A DNA stretch of 64,000 nucleotides, taken from NCBI RefSeq assembly GCF_001677475.2, contig NZ_CP015229.1; one strand, 5' to 3'. The notes below the pieces were generated by a model. That model ran no database searches. It was not told the origin of the DNA and saw only the letters and a list, made by a program, of their open reading frames with translations. A program made the translations under genes and the position numbers. Each line of letters starts with the position of its first letter. Positions within the stretch are counted from its first letter, which is position 1. The stretch comes from Escherichia coli. GTDB taxonomy: Bacteria; Pseudomonadota; Gammaproteobacteria; Enterobacterales; Enterobacteriaceae. Of the stretch, positions 2,919-50,790 are shown one piece after another.

Positions 2919-4826
2919 ATGTCATTAATCAGTATGCATGGCGCATGGCTGTCGTTCAGCGACGCGCCGCTTCTCGATAACGCAGAACTGCATATCGAAG
3001 ATAACGAACGTGTTTGTCTGGTGGGCCGCAACGGCGCAGGCAAATCGACGTTAATGAAAATCCTCAACCGTGAACAAGGGCTGGATGACGGTCGCATTAT
3101 TTACGAGCAAGATTTGATTGTAGCTCGTCTGCAACAGGATCCGCCGCGTAACGTTGAGGGGAGTGTTTATGATTTCGTTGCCGAAGGCATTGAAGAACAA
3201 GCGGAATACCTGAAACGCTATCACGATATTTCGCGCCTGGTGATGAACGACCCGAGCGAGAAAAATCTCAACGAACTGGCGAAGGTTCAGGAACAGCTGG
3301 ATCACCACAACCTGTGGCAGCTGGAAAACCGCATCAACGAAGTGCTGGCGCAACTGGGGTTAGATCCTAACGTTGCGCTGTCGTCGCTTTCCGGCGGCTG
3401 GTTGCGTAAAGCGGCATTAGGACGCGCGCTGGTGAGCAATCCGCGCGTATTGCTGCTCGACGAACCGACTAACCACCTGGATATCGAAACCATCGACTGG
3501 CTGGAAGGATTCCTTAAAACCTTCAATGGGACGATAATTTTCATCTCCCACGACCGTTCGTTTATCCGCAATATGGCGACGCGCATTGTTGATCTCGATC
3601 GCGGCAAGCTTGTGACCTATCCTGGGAATTACGACCAGTACCTGCTGGAAAAAGAAGAAGCCCTGCGCGTGGAAGAACTACAAAATGCCGAGTTCGATCG
3701 CAAACTGGCGCAGGAAGAGGTGTGGATCCGCCAGGGGATCAAAGCACGCCGTACCCGTAATGAAGGCCGCGTACGCGCCCTGAAAGCAATGCGTCGCGAG
3801 CGTGGCGAACGTCGCGAAGTGATGGGTACCGCAAAGATGCAGGTGGAAGAGGCCAGCCGTTCCGGTAAGATCGTTTTCGAAATGGAAGACGTTTGCTACC
3901 AGGTCGACGGTAAGCAACTGGTGAAAGATTTTTCGGCCCAGGTTCTACGTGGCGACAAAATTGCCCTGATTGGTCCGAATGGATGCGGCAAAACCACGCT
4001 GCTGAAACTGATGCTCGGTCAGCTTCAGGCGGACAGCGGGCGTATTCACGTTGGCACCAAACTGGAAGTGGCTTATTTCGATCAGCACCGTGCGGAACTG
4101 GATCCCGATAAAACGGTGATGGATAACCTTGCTGAAGGTAAGCAAGAGGTGATGGTTAACGGCAAGCCACGCCATGTTTTGGGCTATTTGCAGGACTTCC
4201 TGTTCCATCCGAAACGGGCGATGACGCCGGTACGTGCGCTTTCTGGCGGTGAGCGTAACCGCTTGTTGTTGGCGCGTTTGTTCCTCAAACCAAGCAACTT
4301 ATTGATTCTTGACGAACCGACCAACGATCTTGATGTTGAAACGCTGGAACTGCTGGAAGAACTGATCGACAGCTACCAGGGCACGGTATTGCTGGTGAGC
4401 CACGATCGTCAGTTTGTCGATAACACCGTTACAGAATGCTGGATCTTCGAAGGCGGCGGTAAAATTGGTCGTTATGTCGGCGGTTATCATGATGCCCGTG
4501 GTCAGCAAGAACAGTATGTGGCGCTCAAACAGCCTGCGGTGAAAAAAATCGAAGAAGCCGCCGCGCCAAAAGCAGAAACTGTAAAACGCAGCAGTAGCAA
4601 ACTAAGCTATAAATTGCAGCGCGAACTGGAGCAGCTACCGCAATTGCTCGAAGATCTGGAGGCGAAGCTGGAAGCCCTACAGACGCAGGTGGCGGATGCT
4701 TCCTTCTTCAGTCAGCCGCATGAGCAGACACAAAAAGTGCTCGCTGATATGGCTGCTGCAGAGCAGGAGCTGGAGCAAGCCTTTGAACGCTGGGAGTATC
4801 TTGAAGCGTTAAAAAATGGTGGCTGA
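2919..4826 (+). CDS. uup: ABC-F family ATPase Uup
   Basis: 635 aa, two ABC cassettes (GRNGAGKST / GPNGCGKTT, LSGGE signatures), C-terminal coiled coil. Confidence 0.93.
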   Translation: MSLISMHGAWLSFSDAPLLDNAELHIEDNERVCLVGRNGAGKSTLMKILNREQGLDDGRIIYEQDLIVARLQQDPPRNVEGSVYDFVAEGIEEQAEYLKRYHDISRLVMNDPSEKNLNELAKVQEQLDHHNLWQLENRINEVLAQLGLDPNVALSSLSGGWLRKAALGRALVSNPRVLLLDEPTNHLDIETIDWLEGFLKTFNGTIIFISHDRSFIRNMATRIVDLDRGKLVTYPGNYDQYLLEKEEALRVEELQNAEFDRKLAQEEVWIRQGIKARRTRNEGRVRALKAMRRERGERREVMGTAKMQVEEASRSGKIVFEMEDVCYQVDGKQLVKDFSAQVLRGDKIALIGPNGCGKTTLLKLMLGQLQADSGRIHVGTKLEVAYFDQHRAELDPDKTVMDNLAEGKQEVMVNGKPRHVLGYLQDFLFHPKRAMTPVRALSGGERNRLLLARLFLKPSNLLILDEPTNDLDVETLELLEELIDSYQGTVLLVSHDRQFVDNTVTECWIFEGGGKIGRYVGGYHDARGQQEQYVALKQPAVKKIEEAAAPKAETVKRSSSKLSYKLQRELEQLPQLLEDLEAKLEALQTQVADASFFSQPHEQTQKVLADMAAAEQELEQAFERWEYLEALKNGG

Positions 4827-4955
4827 TCGCAAAATAGTCGATTTAAACAGAGACAGCTGACAACGGTAAAATTGCCTGATGAATTGGGTTTATCAGGCAT
4901 GAAAACCAACACTTTGTTCGTCATCTGTAAAATAGCGCATCATTAAGGAGTACCA

Positions 4956-24792: not shown

Positions 24793-25812
24793 CTACTTAC
24801 TGACCACAAGCGGCAAATCCAGTGTTGGCGTGATTTTGGTTTTACGATCGTAAATCAACACCTGATTTTCTGTTTTGTGTCCACTGAAAATTTGTTTGTC
24901 GCGACTGCTGCCTTCGTAATCTGAAATCCCTTTGGCTTTTATGTCATGGAAGTTGCACCCAAACGGAACGCCGGCTTTTTGCTCGGCTGCACGTTTAGCC
25001 TGATTCCACCAGTTGTTCAGCGTCTTGGCTATTACCTTCCCGCCTTTGGTTGTGTTGATCACATACTCGCATGTGCCGGAAGATACATTTCGGGCTAACT
25101 GGATCGCCGTACGTAATCGCGGAGACCATTCCTTGATTTGTTTAGTGCCAGTCTTGTTTTGCTCAATGTAAATCCCTTTATCCATAATATCCTGCCATTT
25201 CAGCTCGAGTACATCACCGAGCCTTGCCGCACAAAGATAGGATATCTCCATTGCAATACGTAACTGTGGAATTGCTTCCGCATATATTGCTGCATACTGT
25301 TCATCGGTGATGTAAACAGTACGGGCTTTAAGTGTGAATTTTCTGACACCTTTGCATGGATTATTTTTCACATACCCACGCTCATATCCCCATCCGTATA
25401 CACGGCTCAGACTTGCCAGTTCATGGTTTGCCTGGGTCTTGCTCTCAAGTCCTCGCTTATCCATGAAAATTCTTACCTGTTCAATTTTTACATTATCAGC
25501 AAGCACTTTTCCGAATACTGCCAACAATGCCCTTTGATGTTGCCGATAATCTTTTTGGGTTCGGGGGGCCAGTTCTGTAAATGCAGGGGAGTCCATAAAC
25601 ATGTGCCATAATTTAGCTACTGTCATTATGTTGTGGAGTTTTGCTTTTTCCAGCTCATAATTTTGCCAGACTTTAGCTACGCTGGTTTCCCGCACTCTTC
25701 CGAGCCCTATAGTTCTTGTGCTTCCTTCGGGTTTCCATACGTAACTGTAACCGTTCGATCTAACACGCGGTGGTAGTGCATTATCTTTTTTGTTTTTTCT
25801 TGGTCTTCCCAT
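24793..25812 (-). CDS. int: Prophage tyrosine integrase
   Basis: 339 aa, adjacent to tRNA junction, C-terminal H-x-x-K...GH...Y catalytic pattern. Confidence 0.85.
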   Translation of the reverse strand: MGRPRKNKKDNALPPRVRSNGYSYVWKPEGSTRTIGLGRVRETSVAKVWQNYELEKAKLHNIMTVAKLWHMFMDSPAFTELAPRTQKDYRQHQRALLAVFGKVLADNVKIEQVRIFMDKRGLESKTQANHELASLSRVYGWGYERGYVKNNPCKGVRKFTLKARTVYITDEQYAAIYAEAIPQLRIAMEISYLCAARLGDVLELKWQDIMDKGIYIEQNKTGTKQIKEWSPRLRTAIQLARNVSSGTCEYVINTTKGGKVIAKTLNNWWNQAKRAAEQKAGVPFGCNFHDIKAKGISDYEGSSRDKQIFSGHKTENQVLIYDRKTKITPTLDLPLVVSK

Positions 25813-26098: not shown

Positions 26099-28549
26099 TT
26101 AAAAATCAACCGGATTCGGGATCAGTTTTTGCCAGATTGCTGAAACGTATTTTGCCTGGTAACGAGCGTCATCAAGTGCATTATGGCGCTCACCTTCGAA
26201 TGGGATAGCTGTTCTGGCATCGAAGTCTATGGCTTTCCCCAGCTCAACGATTGTGCGTACATCGCGATCGTTGCAGTAGCGCCAAGGGCAGGGGATACCC
26301 TGTCGTTCGTATGAACGGCGTAAAATCACGTTGTCGAAGTTGGCCCCATTACCCCAGACCTGAACAAAAAATTCACCGGAGTTTTCGTCGATAAATTCCC
26401 GCAATTGCAGCAGTGCATCATCTAACGGGATTTCATCGGTCAGAATGGCAGATTGCGCCTCGCGTGATTGCTTAAGCCACCATTTTATGGTGTCACGATT
26501 AATGACTCCGCCAGCAGTTTCCAGATCGATGGTCTTACTAAATTCCGGCCCCATATCTCCGGTTTGCGGATCGAAAAATATTGCACCTATTGAGATAATC
26601 GGGGCATCGGGATTTTTTCCCATGGTTTCAAGGTCGATCATAAGATGGTCACATGACCTGCTTGTGGATGTGATATTGTGATAACCGTTCACCTTAATTA
26701 AGGGATCTGTTGCTTCGCCAGTTTCATTATCGCTGGCGTGATGCTGATTGCCTCCAGTGTTCTCCTTGTGTGGATGTTCAGCGCCTTCCATTTCCTCCGG
26801 ATCATTCTCCTGAGCTTCAACCTGATTCTCTTCATCGAATGTTTCCTGGTATGTTGCGTTTCCCATGACCGCGCCACAGTCAGGACAGTTGCCGCCGCTG
26901 CTCTGACCGCAGACGGTGCAGACTTTTTCCGGTTCCTGTTGCACTACTGGTTCGGATTGTTTCGTTTCTGGTTCGTTTTGTTGCGCATTTGGGCTGTTTT
27001 GTTCCGCTTTCTGGTCGTTCTGTGCCGTTTCTTGCTGGTTCTGGTTCACAGAATCGCGGGTTTCAATCCCCTTCACCCATTTCGGATCATTCGGGTCGCT
27101 AATCCCTGCAACAAATTCACCACGTGATGCAGCGAGCAACTGACTGGCGTCAGGCAGGCTGATATTGGCTGCCTGCATAATTTTGTTTACTTCGTCAGCG
27201 GTAACTTTTACCTGATTAACCGGATCTATCTGTGCCTGAGTATCCAGCGATTGCGTGTCCTGGCGAAGTTCAGTTGTATCCGGCTCCATTGCTTCAGTCG
27301 TTGCCTGTTCATCTGCCATTGCGTCAGACGGTTGTGATTTTTCATCATTATTTTTTTCTTCTTCTGTTTCGCGTTTAGCAGCCAGTTCGCGGTTAACTTC
27401 TTCCTGGATATCTTTTTCCGGTGTATGTCGTGCAGCAGCGAGAGTTTCTTCGGTAGGGTTCTCGTGATCAGTCTCCGTTAAGTGGGCGTTGATATACTCC
27501 TGAAGGCGTCCCGGGTAGAGATAAAGTTCAGGGTGAGCACTTCGGATAAGTGCAAAAATAGCGGCACGGGAATAATCCAGAATACCAGGGGTTGCGCGAA
27601 GTGCTGCGGACCATTCTTTGAACGGACTTTCTTTCTTCCGGACGACTTCTTTTGCGCGACGATAAACGCTGCCCGGAATTTCATAAATATTAAAATCCAT
27701 CGGAAGTGTGGCCGCTGCAATCTCCACATCCAGCGTATCGAAGGTGTGTACTAAATTCGGATTGCGATCGGTTTTGTTCCCGCCGCCAGCATTAGCACCG
27801 GAAGCCGTGCGGATGATGCGTGAAACACGATTCCCCTTCATCCACTCTTTTGTAAGCAGACCGCGATCGGTGTAGTCAGCGCCCAGGTATGCTTCGAAAA
27901 AAGCAGTCATCAGTCCCAGGTCTGAATTGCCAGGATTAGGGAAAACTTTGTCAGTGTCACGAACCAGTTTGTGGAGATCGCGAATTTCCAGCGGTTCGAG
28001 TTGCGCTGCTTTATTTGAGATGGCCAGCGCGGTAACGGCGGGAAGTTTTTCATCCTGTGCGTTATGTAATGCGCGCAGTTCGCCCCGCGAAACGTGAGTG
28101 ATCGGTTTTTCGCTGCCGTGCTGAGCAAGCCAGCGAATGGGAAGTATCTGGCCAGAAACCGGGAGTAGCATATTCTCCTCAATATCAGTCATGTCTTCGC
28201 CGTTGACGTTGGTATTGTCAGTGCTGGCTGGTTTATCCTGAACAGAGGGCGCGATAAATACCATTGTGATACCATCTTCCCCGCCTTTTTCGTATCGGTT
28301 GCAGAATTCGGTATCAAACACACCTTCCGGAGGCAGGTCATTCACAACGGGTAAATGGACGCGGACGGGTTTTTTAAAGTCGTCTTCATCATAATCGTTG
28401 TCATCCATTGCGGTAATACAACGGGAGATGGCAACAGATAATTTTTTTGCTGTGGTCCAGTAAAAACCACCTTTAATTCCCAGGCGTTTTCTGACTTTGT
28501 CATTTTTTGCTTCGCAATATAGCGCAAATTCTTCTTTTTCAGTGCTCAT
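26099..28549 (-). CDS. Large prophage exonuclease with C-terminal DnaQ-like (DEDDh) 3'-5' exonuclease domain and central acidic/Q-rich region
   Basis: 816 aa; C-terminus LMIDLETMGKN...HNALDDARYQA; CxxC...CxxC zinc ribbon; low-complexity E/Q/N-rich segment. Confidence 0.6.
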   Translation of the reverse strand: MSTEKEEFALYCEAKNDKVRKRLGIKGGFYWTTAKKLSVAISRCITAMDDNDYDEDDFKKPVRVHLPVVNDLPPEGVFDTEFCNRYEKGGEDGITMVFIAPSVQDKPASTDNTNVNGEDMTDIEENMLLPVSGQILPIRWLAQHGSEKPITHVSRGELRALHNAQDEKLPAVTALAISNKAAQLEPLEIRDLHKLVRDTDKVFPNPGNSDLGLMTAFFEAYLGADYTDRGLLTKEWMKGNRVSRIIRTASGANAGGGNKTDRNPNLVHTFDTLDVEIAAATLPMDFNIYEIPGSVYRRAKEVVRKKESPFKEWSAALRATPGILDYSRAAIFALIRSAHPELYLYPGRLQEYINAHLTETDHENPTEETLAAARHTPEKDIQEEVNRELAAKRETEEEKNNDEKSQPSDAMADEQATTEAMEPDTTELRQDTQSLDTQAQIDPVNQVKVTADEVNKIMQAANISLPDASQLLAASRGEFVAGISDPNDPKWVKGIETRDSVNQNQQETAQNDQKAEQNSPNAQQNEPETKQSEPVVQQEPEKVCTVCGQSSGGNCPDCGAVMGNATYQETFDEENQVEAQENDPEEMEGAEHPHKENTGGNQHHASDNETGEATDPLIKVNGYHNITSTSRSCDHLMIDLETMGKNPDAPIISIGAIFFDPQTGDMGPEFSKTIDLETAGGVINRDTIKWWLKQSREAQSAILTDEIPLDDALLQLREFIDENSGEFFVQVWGNGANFDNVILRRSYERQGIPCPWRYCNDRDVRTIVELGKAIDFDARTAIPFEGERHNALDDARYQAKYVSAIWQKLIPNPVDF

Positions 28550-30462: not shown

Positions 30463-30515
30463 GTCAGGCGAGGTGGTATCCTCTGAGGGGTCTGTTACTC
30501 GAGAGGAAATTGGTT

Positions 30516-30716
30516 ATGAATACAATCAAGTTTTCTTGCCCAGAATGTGGTGGCGAAGTCTTTGACACATCCTTTAAGCCGCAGGGCTCTGACAGTTTCG
30601 CGGGAGCCATCTGCAAAAATTGTGGTCACCTTGTAACTGAAGATGAGTCCTCGCAGTTCGATGACGAAATCGTTGATAATATCTTCGGCGCACTCACCAG
30701 AGATTTCCTGAAGTAA
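30516..30716 (+). CDS. Hypothetical zinc-ribbon protein
   Basis: CPECGG...CKNCGH pattern and GAGAGGAAA RBS; conflicts with antisense ORF 30495-30851. Confidence 0.35.
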   Translation: MNTIKFSCPECGGEVFDTSFKPQGSDSFAGAICKNCGHLVTEDESSQFDDEIVDNIFGALTRDFLK

Positions 30717-31116
30717 AAGCGCATGCCGTTTAGTTACCGCTCTGATCATTCTTACTTGTCCGGTAATGGCGCTGACATCAGTATAAAGCGCCATTGCTGC
30801 TTCTTTGCCGATCCCAGGATGCCTTCCATTCTGATGTTTGACTTCGCCCACTGAGAAATCCTCTGTTTCCCCTTAACGCCGGGGTAGCGGAACAAAAACC
30901 TGCTGCATAGTTAAAGTTGAACCCTGCCGTCATGTTCTTACGCCTCGGGCTGGCTACTTAACCCCTGACCACTGCCTGGTAACTCGAAGTATTGCCCTGC
31001 GTTTTGTGGGGCGGGGTGGGTTAGTAAAAATAGTTTATACAAAAATAAACTAAACAGTCAATATGCAACTTAACTCTTTGGCGAGGATAACCCCTGTTGA
31101 GAGGGGCTTCGGGGGA

Positions 31117-31404
31117 TTAAGGTGTTACAGGGAACTGTCGGCGGGCGTGAACTACGCTAACAATTTCAATGCCTGAAATTGTCACGCGGTATAGAATTAT
31201 GTAATTGGGGTGAGCAACAATTTCACGCAAACCCGGAACTCTGTCGCTTGGCGGGTATAAATACGGATGCTCAGATAATGGCAGGACGCAAGTCCTTAAG
31301 CGTTTCCACAAACGTTCTGCCGCATCTATATCAAAACGAGCAATATAGCTAGTTATATCATCCAAGTCGGCATCTGCGCTTTCGAGCCATAAAACCGGTA
31401 ACAT
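31117..31404 (-). CDS. RelE/ParE-family toxin
   Basis: 95 aa, small basic protein immediately downstream of a small antitoxin-like ORF. Confidence 0.6.
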   Translation of the reverse strand: MLPVLWLESADADLDDITSYIARFDIDAAERLWKRLRTCVLPLSEHPYLYPPSDRVPGLREIVAHPNYIILYRVTISGIEIVSVVHARRQFPVTP

Positions 31405-31596
31405 TTACTGCTTGCTCCGTTCCTTGCGCATGTTAGCAAAGCGTTCAGCCATTCTGCGTTCAACTTCGTCATGTGGGATGGCTGGACGTGGATCAGCAAG
31501 GCTTGCGGCCACTTTTGCACGCAGCCATTCGTTATAACTATTTTCTTGCTCGATGGTTTCAAATTCAGAAACCATTGGTGAAAGGGCTGTGTTCAT
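31405..31596 (-). CDS. Cognate antitoxin (small acidic DNA-binding protein)
   Basis: 63 aa from MNTALSPMVSEFE...; abuts the toxin start. Confidence 0.5.
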   Translation of the reverse strand: MNTALSPMVSEFETIEQENSYNEWLRAKVAASLADPRPAIPHDEVERRMAERFANMRKERSKQ

Positions 31597-31631
31597 GGCG
31601 AACCTCGTTTTGTAAGTGCTGGTAATTCTGC

Positions 31632-32027
31632 CTAGGTAACTTTTTGTTGTGCTGCTAGCCACCTTGCAACTATACGATCCATTGTCTCTTTTTTTTCCTT
31701 CATATCTTTAAGTATTTGCTGTTGATCTTCCTCTGGAAATGCCTCAAATGTTTGAAGTAGCTCCTTTTGCTTAGGAGATATTTTTAATATATCCTGTGTT
31801 TTGTCTTCTTTTTCTTCATTTAATGGTAAGAAAAACCAATGTTGGGGAAAACCCGTTACTTCAGATAGTTTATCTAGATTAGCTGCTGTAGGGCTTGATA
31901 TACCACAAACCCACCTTTGGACGGATTGTTGAGCAATACCAATTCTGCGCGCAAGCTCTGCTTGACTCCAGCCTTTTTCTAATAGAAGCATCTTAATTCT
32001 AAGAGCACTAATTTCGAGTACGCCCAT
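31632..32027 (-). CDS. XRE-family HTH repressor (CI/RacR-like), paralog A
   Basis: N-terminal HTH LRIKMLLLEKGWSQAELARRIGIAQQSVQRW; C-terminal domain shared with the next ORF. Confidence 0.65.
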   Translation of the reverse strand: MGVLEISALRIKMLLLEKGWSQAELARRIGIAQQSVQRWVCGISSPTAANLDKLSEVTGFPQHWFFLPLNEEKEDKTQDILKISPKQKELLQTFEAFPEEDQQQILKDMKEKKETMDRIVARWLAAQQKVT

Positions 32028-32057
32028 CTGATATCTCTTGTTCCAGTATGTATCCCG

Positions 32058-32429
32058 TCAGGCTCGGCGACCTTGTCGCGCCAACCAACGTGCAACAAGA
32101 TCTTCCATTGCCTCTTTTTTATTTCTTAGTTCTTTTATGATCTCCTGCTGTTCATTATCAGGAAAAGCACTAAATATTTGTAGTAATTCCAATTGGTTAG
32201 GGGTTAATGCCATAGATCTTGATGACGAAGATTCTGTTGTGTCTTCAGGTTCCATATCAAGATAACCCCCAGGCATCCCATATGTTTGCTCAATACGTCT
32301 AGCTGCCTTTTCGCCAAACGTAGATTTACCGCTCATTAACTGAGATAAGTAACTTTTCTCTTTAGGCGGCAAAGTCCTGTCTTTGAACCACTCTTTGAGG
32401 CGTAAACGCCGAATCTCTTTTGTTTCCAT
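32058..32429 (-). CDS. HTH repressor, paralog B, divergent from cro-like gene
   Basis: C-terminus LTPNQLELLQIFSAFPDNEQQEIIKELRNKKEAMEDLVARWLA parallels paralog A. Confidence 0.6.
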   Translation of the reverse strand: METKEIRRLRLKEWFKDRTLPPKEKSYLSQLMSGKSTFGEKAARRIEQTYGMPGGYLDMEPEDTTESSSSRSMALTPNQLELLQIFSAFPDNEQQEIIKELRNKKEAMEDLVARWLARQGRRA

Positions 32430-32531
32430 ACATTCATTATCTTTAGTAATTGCAAAACAAGCAAATACTTGACTGGTTTATTTAGTTGCGTATAAACTTT
32501 CGCTTGTTCTAAATGTGCTGAGATAAAAATT
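32430..32531. promoter_or_regulatory. Divergent promoter/operator region of the immunity switch
   Basis: AT-rich intergenic region between divergent repressor and cro-like genes; AACAAGC/GCTTGTT inverted half-sites. Confidence 0.4.
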
Positions 32532-32819
32532 ATGACGCTAAAGGAATTCATCAAATCATTAAAAATTGGAGAAGCAAAAAAATTTGCGACCAACCTTGGT
32601 GTGTCTCCATCCTTCTTGTCCCAAATGGCATCTGGAACTTCACCTGTGTCTCCTGTTCGTGCGTTGATGATAGAAGCAGAAACTGGAGGACACGTTACAA
32701 GACGCGAATTGAGACCTAATGACTGGGAGCTTATATGGCCCGAATACACTGGAATCACGTCCCCTTCACGTCACAAATATGAACTTAACACCAAAAAGGC
32801 TGATGGGGTTGACTCATGA
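32532..32819 (+). CDS. Cro/YdaS-like HTH protein
   Basis: 95 aa; position and HTH as for Rac YdaS. Confidence 0.55.
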   Translation: MTLKEFIKSLKIGEAKKFATNLGVSPSFLSQMASGTSPVSPVRALMIEAETGGHVTRRELRPNDWELIWPEYTGITSPSRHKYELNTKKADGVDS

Positions 32820-37843: not shown

Positions 37844-38143
37844 TTATAAGAAATCGGTTTCATAACTTTGCCCACCATGATAGATACCGACAATAAAGAC
37901 TTTTCTGCCATCAACGGCAAAAGCAATAATCGTTCTGTGGCGGAAATGAGTTACCCGCATCCCCTGGCGAATATCATCGCGTTTATTGCCCCGATGCGGG
38001 AATGTAGAAAACCCATCAAGATAATCAAGAAGCGCATTGGCATAATTGTCAGCAATGACGTTCCCTGCTTTCTCCGTTATATATCTGTGCAGGTTGATTA
38101 TTTGTTGTTCGGCCTCAGGAGTAATGATGACTTCATATGTCAT
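37844..38143 (-). CDS. ParE/RelE-family toxin
   Basis: 99 aa; paired with upstream ParD-like gene. Confidence 0.65.
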   Translation of the reverse strand: MTYEVIITPEAEQQIINLHRYITEKAGNVIADNYANALLDYLDGFSTFPHRGNKRDDIRQGMRVTHFRHRTIIAFAVDGRKVFIVGIYHGGQSYETDFL

Positions 38144-38148
38144 GCAGA

Positions 38149-38406
38149 TTACTTCCCGGATCGAATCGCGGCGCGAACCTGTGAAATGGAGCGTCCGTTG
38201 TTTGGATTTTCGCGGATAGAATCAAGAGAGGGGGCGGCTGAATGCGTTAACCACGCTTCGATTGCTTTATCGCGCTCATTCAGTGCGCGAAGCCCTTCAC
38301 GAATGACCTCGCTTTCTGAAGCATAGGCACCGGAAGCCACACGGGCGCGCACCATGTCAGCCATCTCGTTAGTTAATGTAATGCTGAATTGTTGGGTTGT
38401 ACGCAT
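38149..38406 (-). CDS. ParD-like ribbon-helix-helix antitoxin
   Basis: From MRTTQQFSITLTNEMADMVRARVASGAYASESEVIREGLRAL. Confidence 0.65.
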   Translation of the reverse strand: MRTTQQFSITLTNEMADMVRARVASGAYASESEVIREGLRALNERDKAIEAWLTHSAAPSLDSIRENPNNGRSISQVRAAIRSGK

Positions 38407-38487
38407 GGTAAACCTCACGGAGTAGGATAGAACACCATTCGATGATAGCACGTTGCCTGTTGACGACAACAGAAATCAGAGACAATA

Positions 38488-42379: not shown

Positions 42380-42455
42380 GGCCCTTTAGCTCAGTGGTGA
42401 GAGCGAGCGACTCATAATCGCCAGGTCGCTGGTTCAAATCCAGCAAGGGCCACCA
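42380..42455 (+). tRNA. tRNA with CAT anticodon (Met or Ile2-lysidine; ileZ-like)
   Basis: 76 nt cloverleaf, anticodon loop CTCATAA, terminal CCA. Confidence 0.8.
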
Positions 42456-42554: not shown

Positions 42555-42631
42555 GCGTTGTTAGCTCAGTCGGACAGAGCAATTGCCTTCTAAGCAATCG
42601 GTCACTGGTTCGAATCCAGTACAACGCGCCA
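42555..42631 (+). tRNA. tRNA-Arg (anticodon TCT; argO-like)
   Basis: 77 nt, anticodon loop CTTCTAA, GGTTCGAATCC T-loop, terminal CCA. Confidence 0.8.
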
Positions 42632-50504: not shown

Positions 50505-50790
50505 AAACCGCTTGCAAAAAATTATCACGGGACTGTATGCTTCCCGCGTCACCCACATGGTGACCGGGTTTGACAGCCTGAATACTACAGCGGACAGCCG
50601 CTTACATTCCGATATGCGGTTTTTTTGTGTCCGTAAACCTACCCATACCCGCATTATGGCGGGGCGTAACGGGGGAGCCTTTGCGCTCGCTGGTTCCTGT
50701 AGTGCCAGTCTGTCAACCCTGTTACGTCTCGCCACCATGTTTGACAGCGTAGTAGCGAGACTCCTTAATTTCACTACAGGAGCCTTTCAC

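Follow-up and report, generated by a model that had tools for sequence, protein, structure and literature searches.

The closest described relative of the locus reported here is paaR2-paaA2-parE2 of prophage CP-933P in Escherichia coli O157:H7 EDL933 (Sp12 in strain Sakai; PDB accession numbers 3ZBE, 5CW7, 5CZE, and 5CZF), a three-component toxin-antitoxin (TA) system from Hallez et al. 2010, as cited in PMC8630535, PMC4803016, and PMC3141249. ParE2 is a toxin that associates with the nucleoid and triggers the SOS response (Jurenas et al. [quoted passage not shown] The antitoxin PaaA2 is devoid of DNA-binding motifs; its binding to ParE2 is cooperative, and the proteases ClpAP and ClpXP degrade it (PMC8630535). 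In this three-component regulation, full repression requires PaaR (PMC4803016), and the PaaA-ParE complex is reported to repress the paaR promoter in part (Hallez et al. 2010, as reviewed in PMC4803016). PaaR2 is the analogue of cI that represses both PR and PL, and YdaS and YdaT play the parts of Cro and CII, which results in bistable expression (PMC8630535). In EDL933, the PRM933P promoter was mapped by 5' RACE, leaderless translation was shown, and PaaR2 was found by N-terminal sequencing to start with MQKKE (PMC8630535). The paaA2-parE2 pair takes the place of rexA and rexB in CP-933P (PMC9986795). [quoted passage not shown] The same authors propose that the locus guards the immunity region from loss and from recombination (PMC8630535).

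A second type, paaR1-paaA1-parE1, is that of O157:H7 prophage CP-933M (Sp4), which is represented in our comparison by locus L007 of strain Xuzhou21 and by its relatives L005 and L006. No cross-neutralization occurs between the A1/E1 and A2/E2 systems through PaaA1 and PaaA2 (PMC4803016).

Here we describe a paaA-parE pair in a 64,000-nt stretch of E. coli DNA (contig NZ_CP015229.1), referred to below as the window. The pair is already known in the sense that, for its orthologue, crystal and NMR structures have been solved, the regulatory circuit has been mapped, and an addiction phenotype has been demonstrated; the sole mildly new element is a second repressor gene in tandem. The useful outcome is a set of corrections to the annotation, namely, that the module is PaaA type and regulator dependent, that it lies in the cI/PRM operon and not the PL operon, and that the toxin is ParE type and not RelE type. 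The features discussed are collected in Table 1.

Table 1. Positions of genes and sites in the window, with the basis of each call
Feature	Position	Strand	Basis or remark
Integrase gene	24793-25812		Left of the locus
Exonuclease VIII-like gene	26099-28549		Left of the locus
PL-like promoter/operator (TTGACT, 18 nt, TAAACT)	31032..31061	-	Promoter scan; downstream of parE
parE toxin gene, ParE2 type, 95 aa	31117..31404	-	ATG start; Pfam, PDB, dN/dS
paaA antitoxin gene, PaaA2 type, 63 aa	31405..31596	-	ATG at 31596; Pfam, NCBIfam, PDB
Extra regulator gene, PaaR1/DicA-like, 131 aa	31632..32027	-	N-terminal HTH_3 and PaaR/DicA-type C-terminal domain
paaR2-like repressor gene, lambda cI analogue, 123 aa	32058..32429	-	Identity to EDL933 PaaR2; PHROG
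PRM-like promoter (TTGCTT, 17 nt, GATAAT)	32436..32464	-	Homology to PRM933P
PR-like promoter for ydaS-ydaT (TTGACT, 18 nt, TAAACT)	32469..32498	+	Promoter scan
ydaS, Cro analogue, 95 aa	32532..32819	+	Pfam YdaS_toxin, E = 1e-9; PHROG 35 transcriptional repressor
YdaT operator-like inverted repeat TTGACTCATGATAATCAA	32809..32826	.	At the ydaS/ydaT junction
ydaT, CII analogue, 141 aa	32816..33241	+	PHROG 163 CII-like activator, E = 2.3e-45
Second ParE-type toxin gene, 99 aa	37844-38143	-	Pfam ParE_toxin, E = 3.2e-10; PHROG "toxin", E = 3.4e-43
ParD/RHH antitoxin gene, 106-aa ORF	38149-38469	-	Pfam ParD_antitoxin, E = 2.3e-7; TIGR02606 above cutoff

Toxin and antitoxin genes

The original prediction, made from the letters alone, described a 63-aa antitoxin-like gene that directly abuts a 95-aa toxin gene, and this arrangement was confirmed. 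The junction of the two genes reads TAAATG, in which the stop codon of paaA (TAA, 31407-31405) is followed by the start codon of parE (ATG, 31404-31402) with a spacer of zero. A Shine-Dalgarno motif, GAGG, is located 7 to 10 nt 5' of the paaA start codon, and a GGAG motif precedes the start codon of parE, inside the 3' end of paaA. In the program-made list of open reading frames, the antitoxin is stretched to a GTG at 31662 (85 aa); the 63-aa form is preferred because it equals full-length PaaA2 and is preceded by the GAGG motif. The position of the GGAG motif and the TAAATG junction suggest that paaA and parE may be translationally coupled, and the junction taken together with the short spacers (30 to 35 bp) between the genes of the operon suggests co-transcription as well.

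The toxin covers the whole of the Pfam ParE_toxin profile (PF05016; E = 1.2e-16, 61.4 bits, cutoff = 23). With O157:H7 ParE2 (PDB accession number 5CW7_B), it shares 90% identity (E = 2.7e-55 among PDB sequences). It differs from ParE2 at 9 of the 92 aligned residues and is 3 residues longer at the C terminus. The remaining matches to solved ParE structures are distant (3KXE, 6X0A, and 5CEG; E = 1e-5 to 3e-4 among PDB sequences), and all of the PDB matches of the toxin are ParE toxins. The toxin had been predicted as "ParE/RelE type," of which the ParE part holds. The RelE assignment was rejected; i.e., the RelE/StbE model TIGR02385 scored 22.4 bits, below its cutoff of 27.9, and the closest structures are all ParE.

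The sole Pfam match of the antitoxin is PaaA2 (PF21217, "stability determinant"; E = 1.1e-20, 73.7 bits, cutoff = 27). Among the NCBIfam models, the antitoxin matches equivalog NF050103 (E = 1.7e-24), for which NCBI uses the name "RelB family antitoxin." It shares 95% identity with PaaA2 (PDB accession numbers 3ZBE and 5CW7; E = 8.9e-35). No ParD, ribbon-helix-helix (RHH), or helix-turn-helix (HTH) match to the antitoxin was found among the Pfam and NCBIfam profiles. These profile matches, the HMM evidence to which the original prediction had pointed, place both proteins in toxin-antitoxin families at a level that chance cannot explain. By sequence, the toxin-binding C-terminal part of the antitoxin, ERRMAERFANMRKERSKQ, is of the A2 type and not of the A1 type, and the DNA of the TA pair clusters with that of CP-933P; the pair is thus assigned to the A2/E2 specificity group and not to A1/E1. 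Compared with paaR1-paaA1-parE1, which has the same three-gene order, the toxin is 68% identical and the antitoxin 63% identical, and the C terminus of the antitoxin differs.

Both genes are full length with respect to the references (92 to 95 aa for ParE and 63 aa for PaaA). The dN/dS ratio is 0.04 to 0.08 for parE and 0.02 to 0.08 across paaA and parE, at dS values of up to approximately 1.3. On these comparisons, paaA-parE is classified as an intact type II toxin-antitoxin pair that is orthologous to PaaA2-ParE2.

Organization of the immunity region

The arrangement around the pair is very similar to that of CP-933P. As in that prophage, a PaaR2-type repressor gene is the first gene of the operon, the PRM-like and PL-like sites occupy the same positions, and ydaS and ydaT are transcribed divergently from the repressor gene, from which they are separated by 102 bp. 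The hexamers of the PRM-like promoter and their spacing are identical to those of the mapped PRM933P region of EDL933, and 6 nt separate the -10 box from the ATG of the paaR2-like gene, implying that the predicted transcript would be a leaderless mRNA. The strict consensus promoter scan missed this site, and its call rests on homology. The PR-like and PL-like sites form a 30-nt inverted repeat (80% identity) that flanks the operon on both sides. The PL-like site has its homologue in the PL933P region of EDL933, whose -35 and -10 boxes are identical to those of PR933P, and the same bracketing by PR and PL is present in CP-933P. The promoter scan gave no promoter-like site directly 5' of paaA, and the scan for intrinsic terminators found none between parE and PL, where a weak hairpin (31089-31108; z = -1.9) lacks a U-run. 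The Rfam search of positions 30700-32600 gave no match, even at E ≤ 1.

From these predicted promoters, the TA pair is placed in the immunity (cI-like) operon between the PRM-like and PL-like promoters, which is the position of rexAB in lambda. The original prediction had assigned it to the early-left (PL) operon. That assignment has to be withdrawn; the PL-like promoter is situated beyond the 3' end of parE, and the PRM-like promoter is followed first by the repressor genes and then by the pair. Similar to lambda cI-rexA-rexB, the accessory genes are located after a predicted leaderless repressor gene, would be co-transcribed with it from PRM, and lie between OR and OL. On the other hand, the proteins are unrelated to those of lambda, and a TA addiction module (PaaA-ParE) stands in the place of an exclusion system (RexAB).

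YdaS and YdaT are 65% and 86% identical to their counterparts in CP-933P, respectively. The inverted repeat TTGACTCATGATAATCAA has one mismatch from the published OM site (TTGATTN6AATCAA) and is found at the published place, the end of ydaS (PMC9986795); such motifs are no more numerous across the window as a whole than expected by chance, and the position alone is informative. The operator half-site of CP-933P, GTTTAGTAA, has 14 matches in the whole window against 10.3 expected, which is not significant, and 4 of the 14 lie in 30728-32449. The PaaR2-like repressor (73% identity), YdaS, and the operators have diverged from those of CP-933P, so the prophage of the window is probably heteroimmune to CP-933P.

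Two further observations were made beside the PL-like site. A transcribed leader of approximately 170 nt (~30856-31025, minus strand), immediately 3' of the PL-like promoter, is strongly conserved, with mostly invariant columns, across CP-933P, the CP-933M-type locus, and L005. The conservation holds despite the differing repressors and operators of these loci, and the adjacent TA genes are only ~62 to 69% identical. A consensus fold of the leader exists with almost no covariation, and the leader overlaps a 51-codon ORF (30778-30933); we make no claim for an RNA because the sequences are too alike for covariation. In the orientation opposite to that of the PL operon, an ORF of 68 aa with a CxxC...CxxC pattern (30510-30716, plus strand) matches the position of an EDL933 gene annotated as "ECs_2282 family putative zinc-binding protein."

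Regulator genes upstream of the pair

The pair had been described as a two-gene module. It is a type II pair but is not self-contained; it belongs to the paaR-paaA-parE family, and two regulator genes precede it. The product of the first of these is 72 to 73% identical to EDL933 PaaR2 over its full length and matches the transcriptional regulator family PHROG 5736 (E = 1.1e-29), and its gene has a dN/dS ratio of 0.09. The second gene encodes a 131-aa protein that matches Pfam HTH_3 (E = 6.7e-13) and gives 56 bits with the NCBIfam DicA subfamily model, under the cutoff of 101. Its dN/dS ratio is 0.13 to 0.24, and no PDB sequence match was found for it. The order of the array is therefore R2-like, R1-like, A2-type, and E2-type, and purifying selection acts on each of the four genes (dN/dS = 0.02 to 0.24).

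The second regulator gene is the main difference from the type locus. In the alignment with EDL933, a clean indel of 460 bp (window positions 31598-32057) takes the place of the 19- to 20-bp spacer between the paaR2 stop codon and the paaA start codon, and the 131-aa gene sits within this segment; it is not present in CP-933P. The HTH_3-type regulators of the paaR1 loci, on the other hand, resemble its product, with identities of 56% for the O157:H7 CP-933M-type locus (L007) and 66% for L005. The window is collinear with the paaR1 loci from PL via parE and paaA to nearly the whole of the regulator gene. In those loci, however, the HTH regulator is the sole repressor and faces ydaS directly. 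The regulator of L007 adjoins a gene of the ECs1072 family.

Operator-like repeats for the 131-aa regulator were derived from its closest relatives that act as sole repressors, and each of these repeats is common to OR and PL in the locus of origin. They are CACTTTTAAAGTTA for the L005 type and AAAAACTGT and ACAGTTTTT for the L007 type. Window positions 30900-32600 have no 9-mers in common with the L005 operator region, and the L005-type motif has 4 matches in the window, about the number that chance would give (5.2), of which the immunity region contains none. No operator for this regulator emerged from the comparison, as the repeats of its closest relatives occur in the window no more often than expected by chance.

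Distribution and evolution

Among 5,426 complete E. coli genomes, DNA of the A2/E2 pair is found in 612, the A1/E1-type module in 537, and the four-gene layout in 16. The A2/E2 loci inspected outside the four-gene set (4 of 4) have the three-gene layout of CP-933P and identical antitoxin proteins. In the RefSeq annotation of E. coli SCU-171, the antitoxin and the 131-aa regulator are identical to those of the window, and the toxin differs by one residue. Among deposited phage genomes, a single record, Escherichia phage Evi, encodes a toxin of this type, and its layout is the three-gene one.

In a neighbor-joining tree of the TA DNA, which comprises eight loci of highly recombinogenic DNA, the three-gene locus of CP-933P groups with the four-gene locus L004 (90%) and not outside the four-gene loci. 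The A1/E1 outgroup likewise has an HTH-type regulator adjoining paaA. Taken together, the outgroup regulator and the nesting of CP-933P make it the simplest reading, and only a lead, that the R1-like/A/E arrangement may be ancestral and that CP-933P may have lost the R1-like gene.

A further step, which we regard as doubtful, is that the array functions as a "double-repressor" immunity operon from which the CP-933P form was derived by loss of the R1-like gene. In such an operon, the 131-aa repressor could confer immunity in trans to heteroimmune lambdoid phages of the PaaR1 type, or it could be a dedicated regulator of the TA genes. If this were true, PaaA2-ParE2 would have had a PaaR1-type HTH protein as its ancestral partner. 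The minority of E. coli prophages in which two CI-like repressors stand in tandem before the TA pair offers a small lead on the question of Jurenas et al. about how TA genes came to depend on a phage repressor, and the four-gene loci also bear on the idea of those authors that the TA pair protects immunity regions during recombination.

One four-gene locus carries a natural variant of the regulator gene. In L003 (positions 4449-4910; E. coli STECUZB006), the PaaR1-like gene has lost its stop codon, extends to 153 aa, and overlaps the start of paaA, which might change the coupling between regulator and antitoxin.

Proposed function and alternative explanations

We consider it probable, at nearly nine chances in ten, that the pair is the orthologue of the CP-933P PaaA2-ParE2 module in a lambdoid immunity region and would act as an addiction element that stabilizes this region. 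In the lysogen, the PRM-like promoter would give a leaderless transcript that encodes the PaaR2-like protein, the PaaR1/DicA-like protein, PaaA, and ParE, in this order. PaaA, a small and largely disordered protein with no DNA-binding domain, would wrap around ParE and neutralize it. PaaA would be turned over by ClpAP and ClpXP, and ParE would be stable. If the immunity region were lost or replaced by recombination, PaaA would decay and free ParE would poison the cell, with nucleoid association and SOS induction as the expected outcome, as in the orthologue. The module would in this way stabilize the immunity region of the prophage. Its transcription would be set by the phage switch, in which the PaaR2-like repressor is opposed to YdaS (Cro) and YdaT (CII), and not by autoregulation through the antitoxin. 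We infer the single four-gene transcript and any role of the extra repressor from the layout of the locus, and toxicity, neutralization, proteolysis, plasmid stabilization, and bistable regulation would carry over from the orthologue; with the extra regulator gene present, the locus may be regulated differently from CP-933P. Stabilization of the prophage had been raised in the original prediction, and it is a reasonable expectation, given that plasmid stabilization by post-segregational killing was shown for an orthologue with 90 to 95% identity (PMC8630535).

Some type II TA modules defend against phages. A role of this kind, in which the pair would be an anti-phage system acting by abortive infection or exclusion as the functional equivalent of lambda RexAB, is unlikely here, and it is compatible with, rather than exclusive of, an addiction element. 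Its location downstream of the repressor gene, as for rexAB (PMC9986795), and the expression of the orthologue in the lysogenic state (PMC8630535) would fit such a role. The toxin and the antitoxin, however, have no match in PADLOC-DB, in which the 131-aa regulator has only generic HTH matches, and the cited literature on PaaA2-ParE2 reports no defense phenotype, the demonstrated phenotype being post-segregational killing. Abortive infection, the other function offered by the original prediction, is thus not borne out.

It is highly improbable that the genes form a canonical two-component, autoregulated ParD-ParE or RelB-RelE pair whose toxin would poison gyrase or act as an mRNA interferase. 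The membership of the toxin in the ParE/RelE superfamily, the name "RelB family" that NCBI gives to the antitoxin family, and the partial repression of the paaR promoter by PaaA-ParE (Hallez et al. 2010, per PMC4803016) are all in line with such a pair, and the module resembles the ParD-ParE systems of RK2, Caulobacter (ParDE1), and Vibrio (ParDE2) in the ParE fold family of the toxin and in having the antitoxin gene first. Unlike in these systems, the antitoxin has no RHH domain and its regulation is outsourced; i.e., its only Pfam match is PaaA2, the orthologue has no DNA-binding motifs, and PaaR is needed for full repression. The score of the RelE/StbE model below its cutoff, the lack of direct GyrA interaction for EcParE2, and the scan result directly 5' of paaA also argue against this alternative. 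That the pair is a decaying passenger of a cryptic prophage with no current function is equally improbable, for although the prophage of the type locus is defective and its toxin activity is undetected at steady state, both ORFs here are intact and under strong constraint (dN/dS as given above), the module is conserved in the 612 genomes, and the toxin of the orthologue is activated on plasmid loss.

Other features of the prophage

The setting of the pair in a prophage, as originally proposed, is well supported. The locus is surrounded by a lambdoid prophage, with an integrase gene and an exonuclease VIII-like gene on its left and replication genes on its right, and the flanking rlmKL-uup-pqiA genes are 98.9% identical to those of E. 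coli genomes.

A second, unrelated ParE-type module is located at 37844-38469. The title of the original prediction, which called the pair described here the first, implies a "second pair," and this module probably corresponds to it. Its ParD ORF probably starts further in than listed, since the family matches span residues 22 to 106. The 99-aa ParE of this module has no BLASTP similarity to the PaaA-associated ParE, and no PDB sequence match was found for the module.

In the late region of the prophage, positions 50652-50739 (plus strand) match the Rfam C4 antisense RNA family (RF01695; 72.3 bits, gathering score = 45). As a speculation, this match could mark an immunity module of the antirepressor type; such a module would be relevant because PaaR2-type repressors have no RecA-cleavable peptidase domain (PMC8630535). 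The prophage also carries two tRNA genes (42380-42452 and 42555-42628, plus strand), which are located downstream of the predicted Q/nin region.
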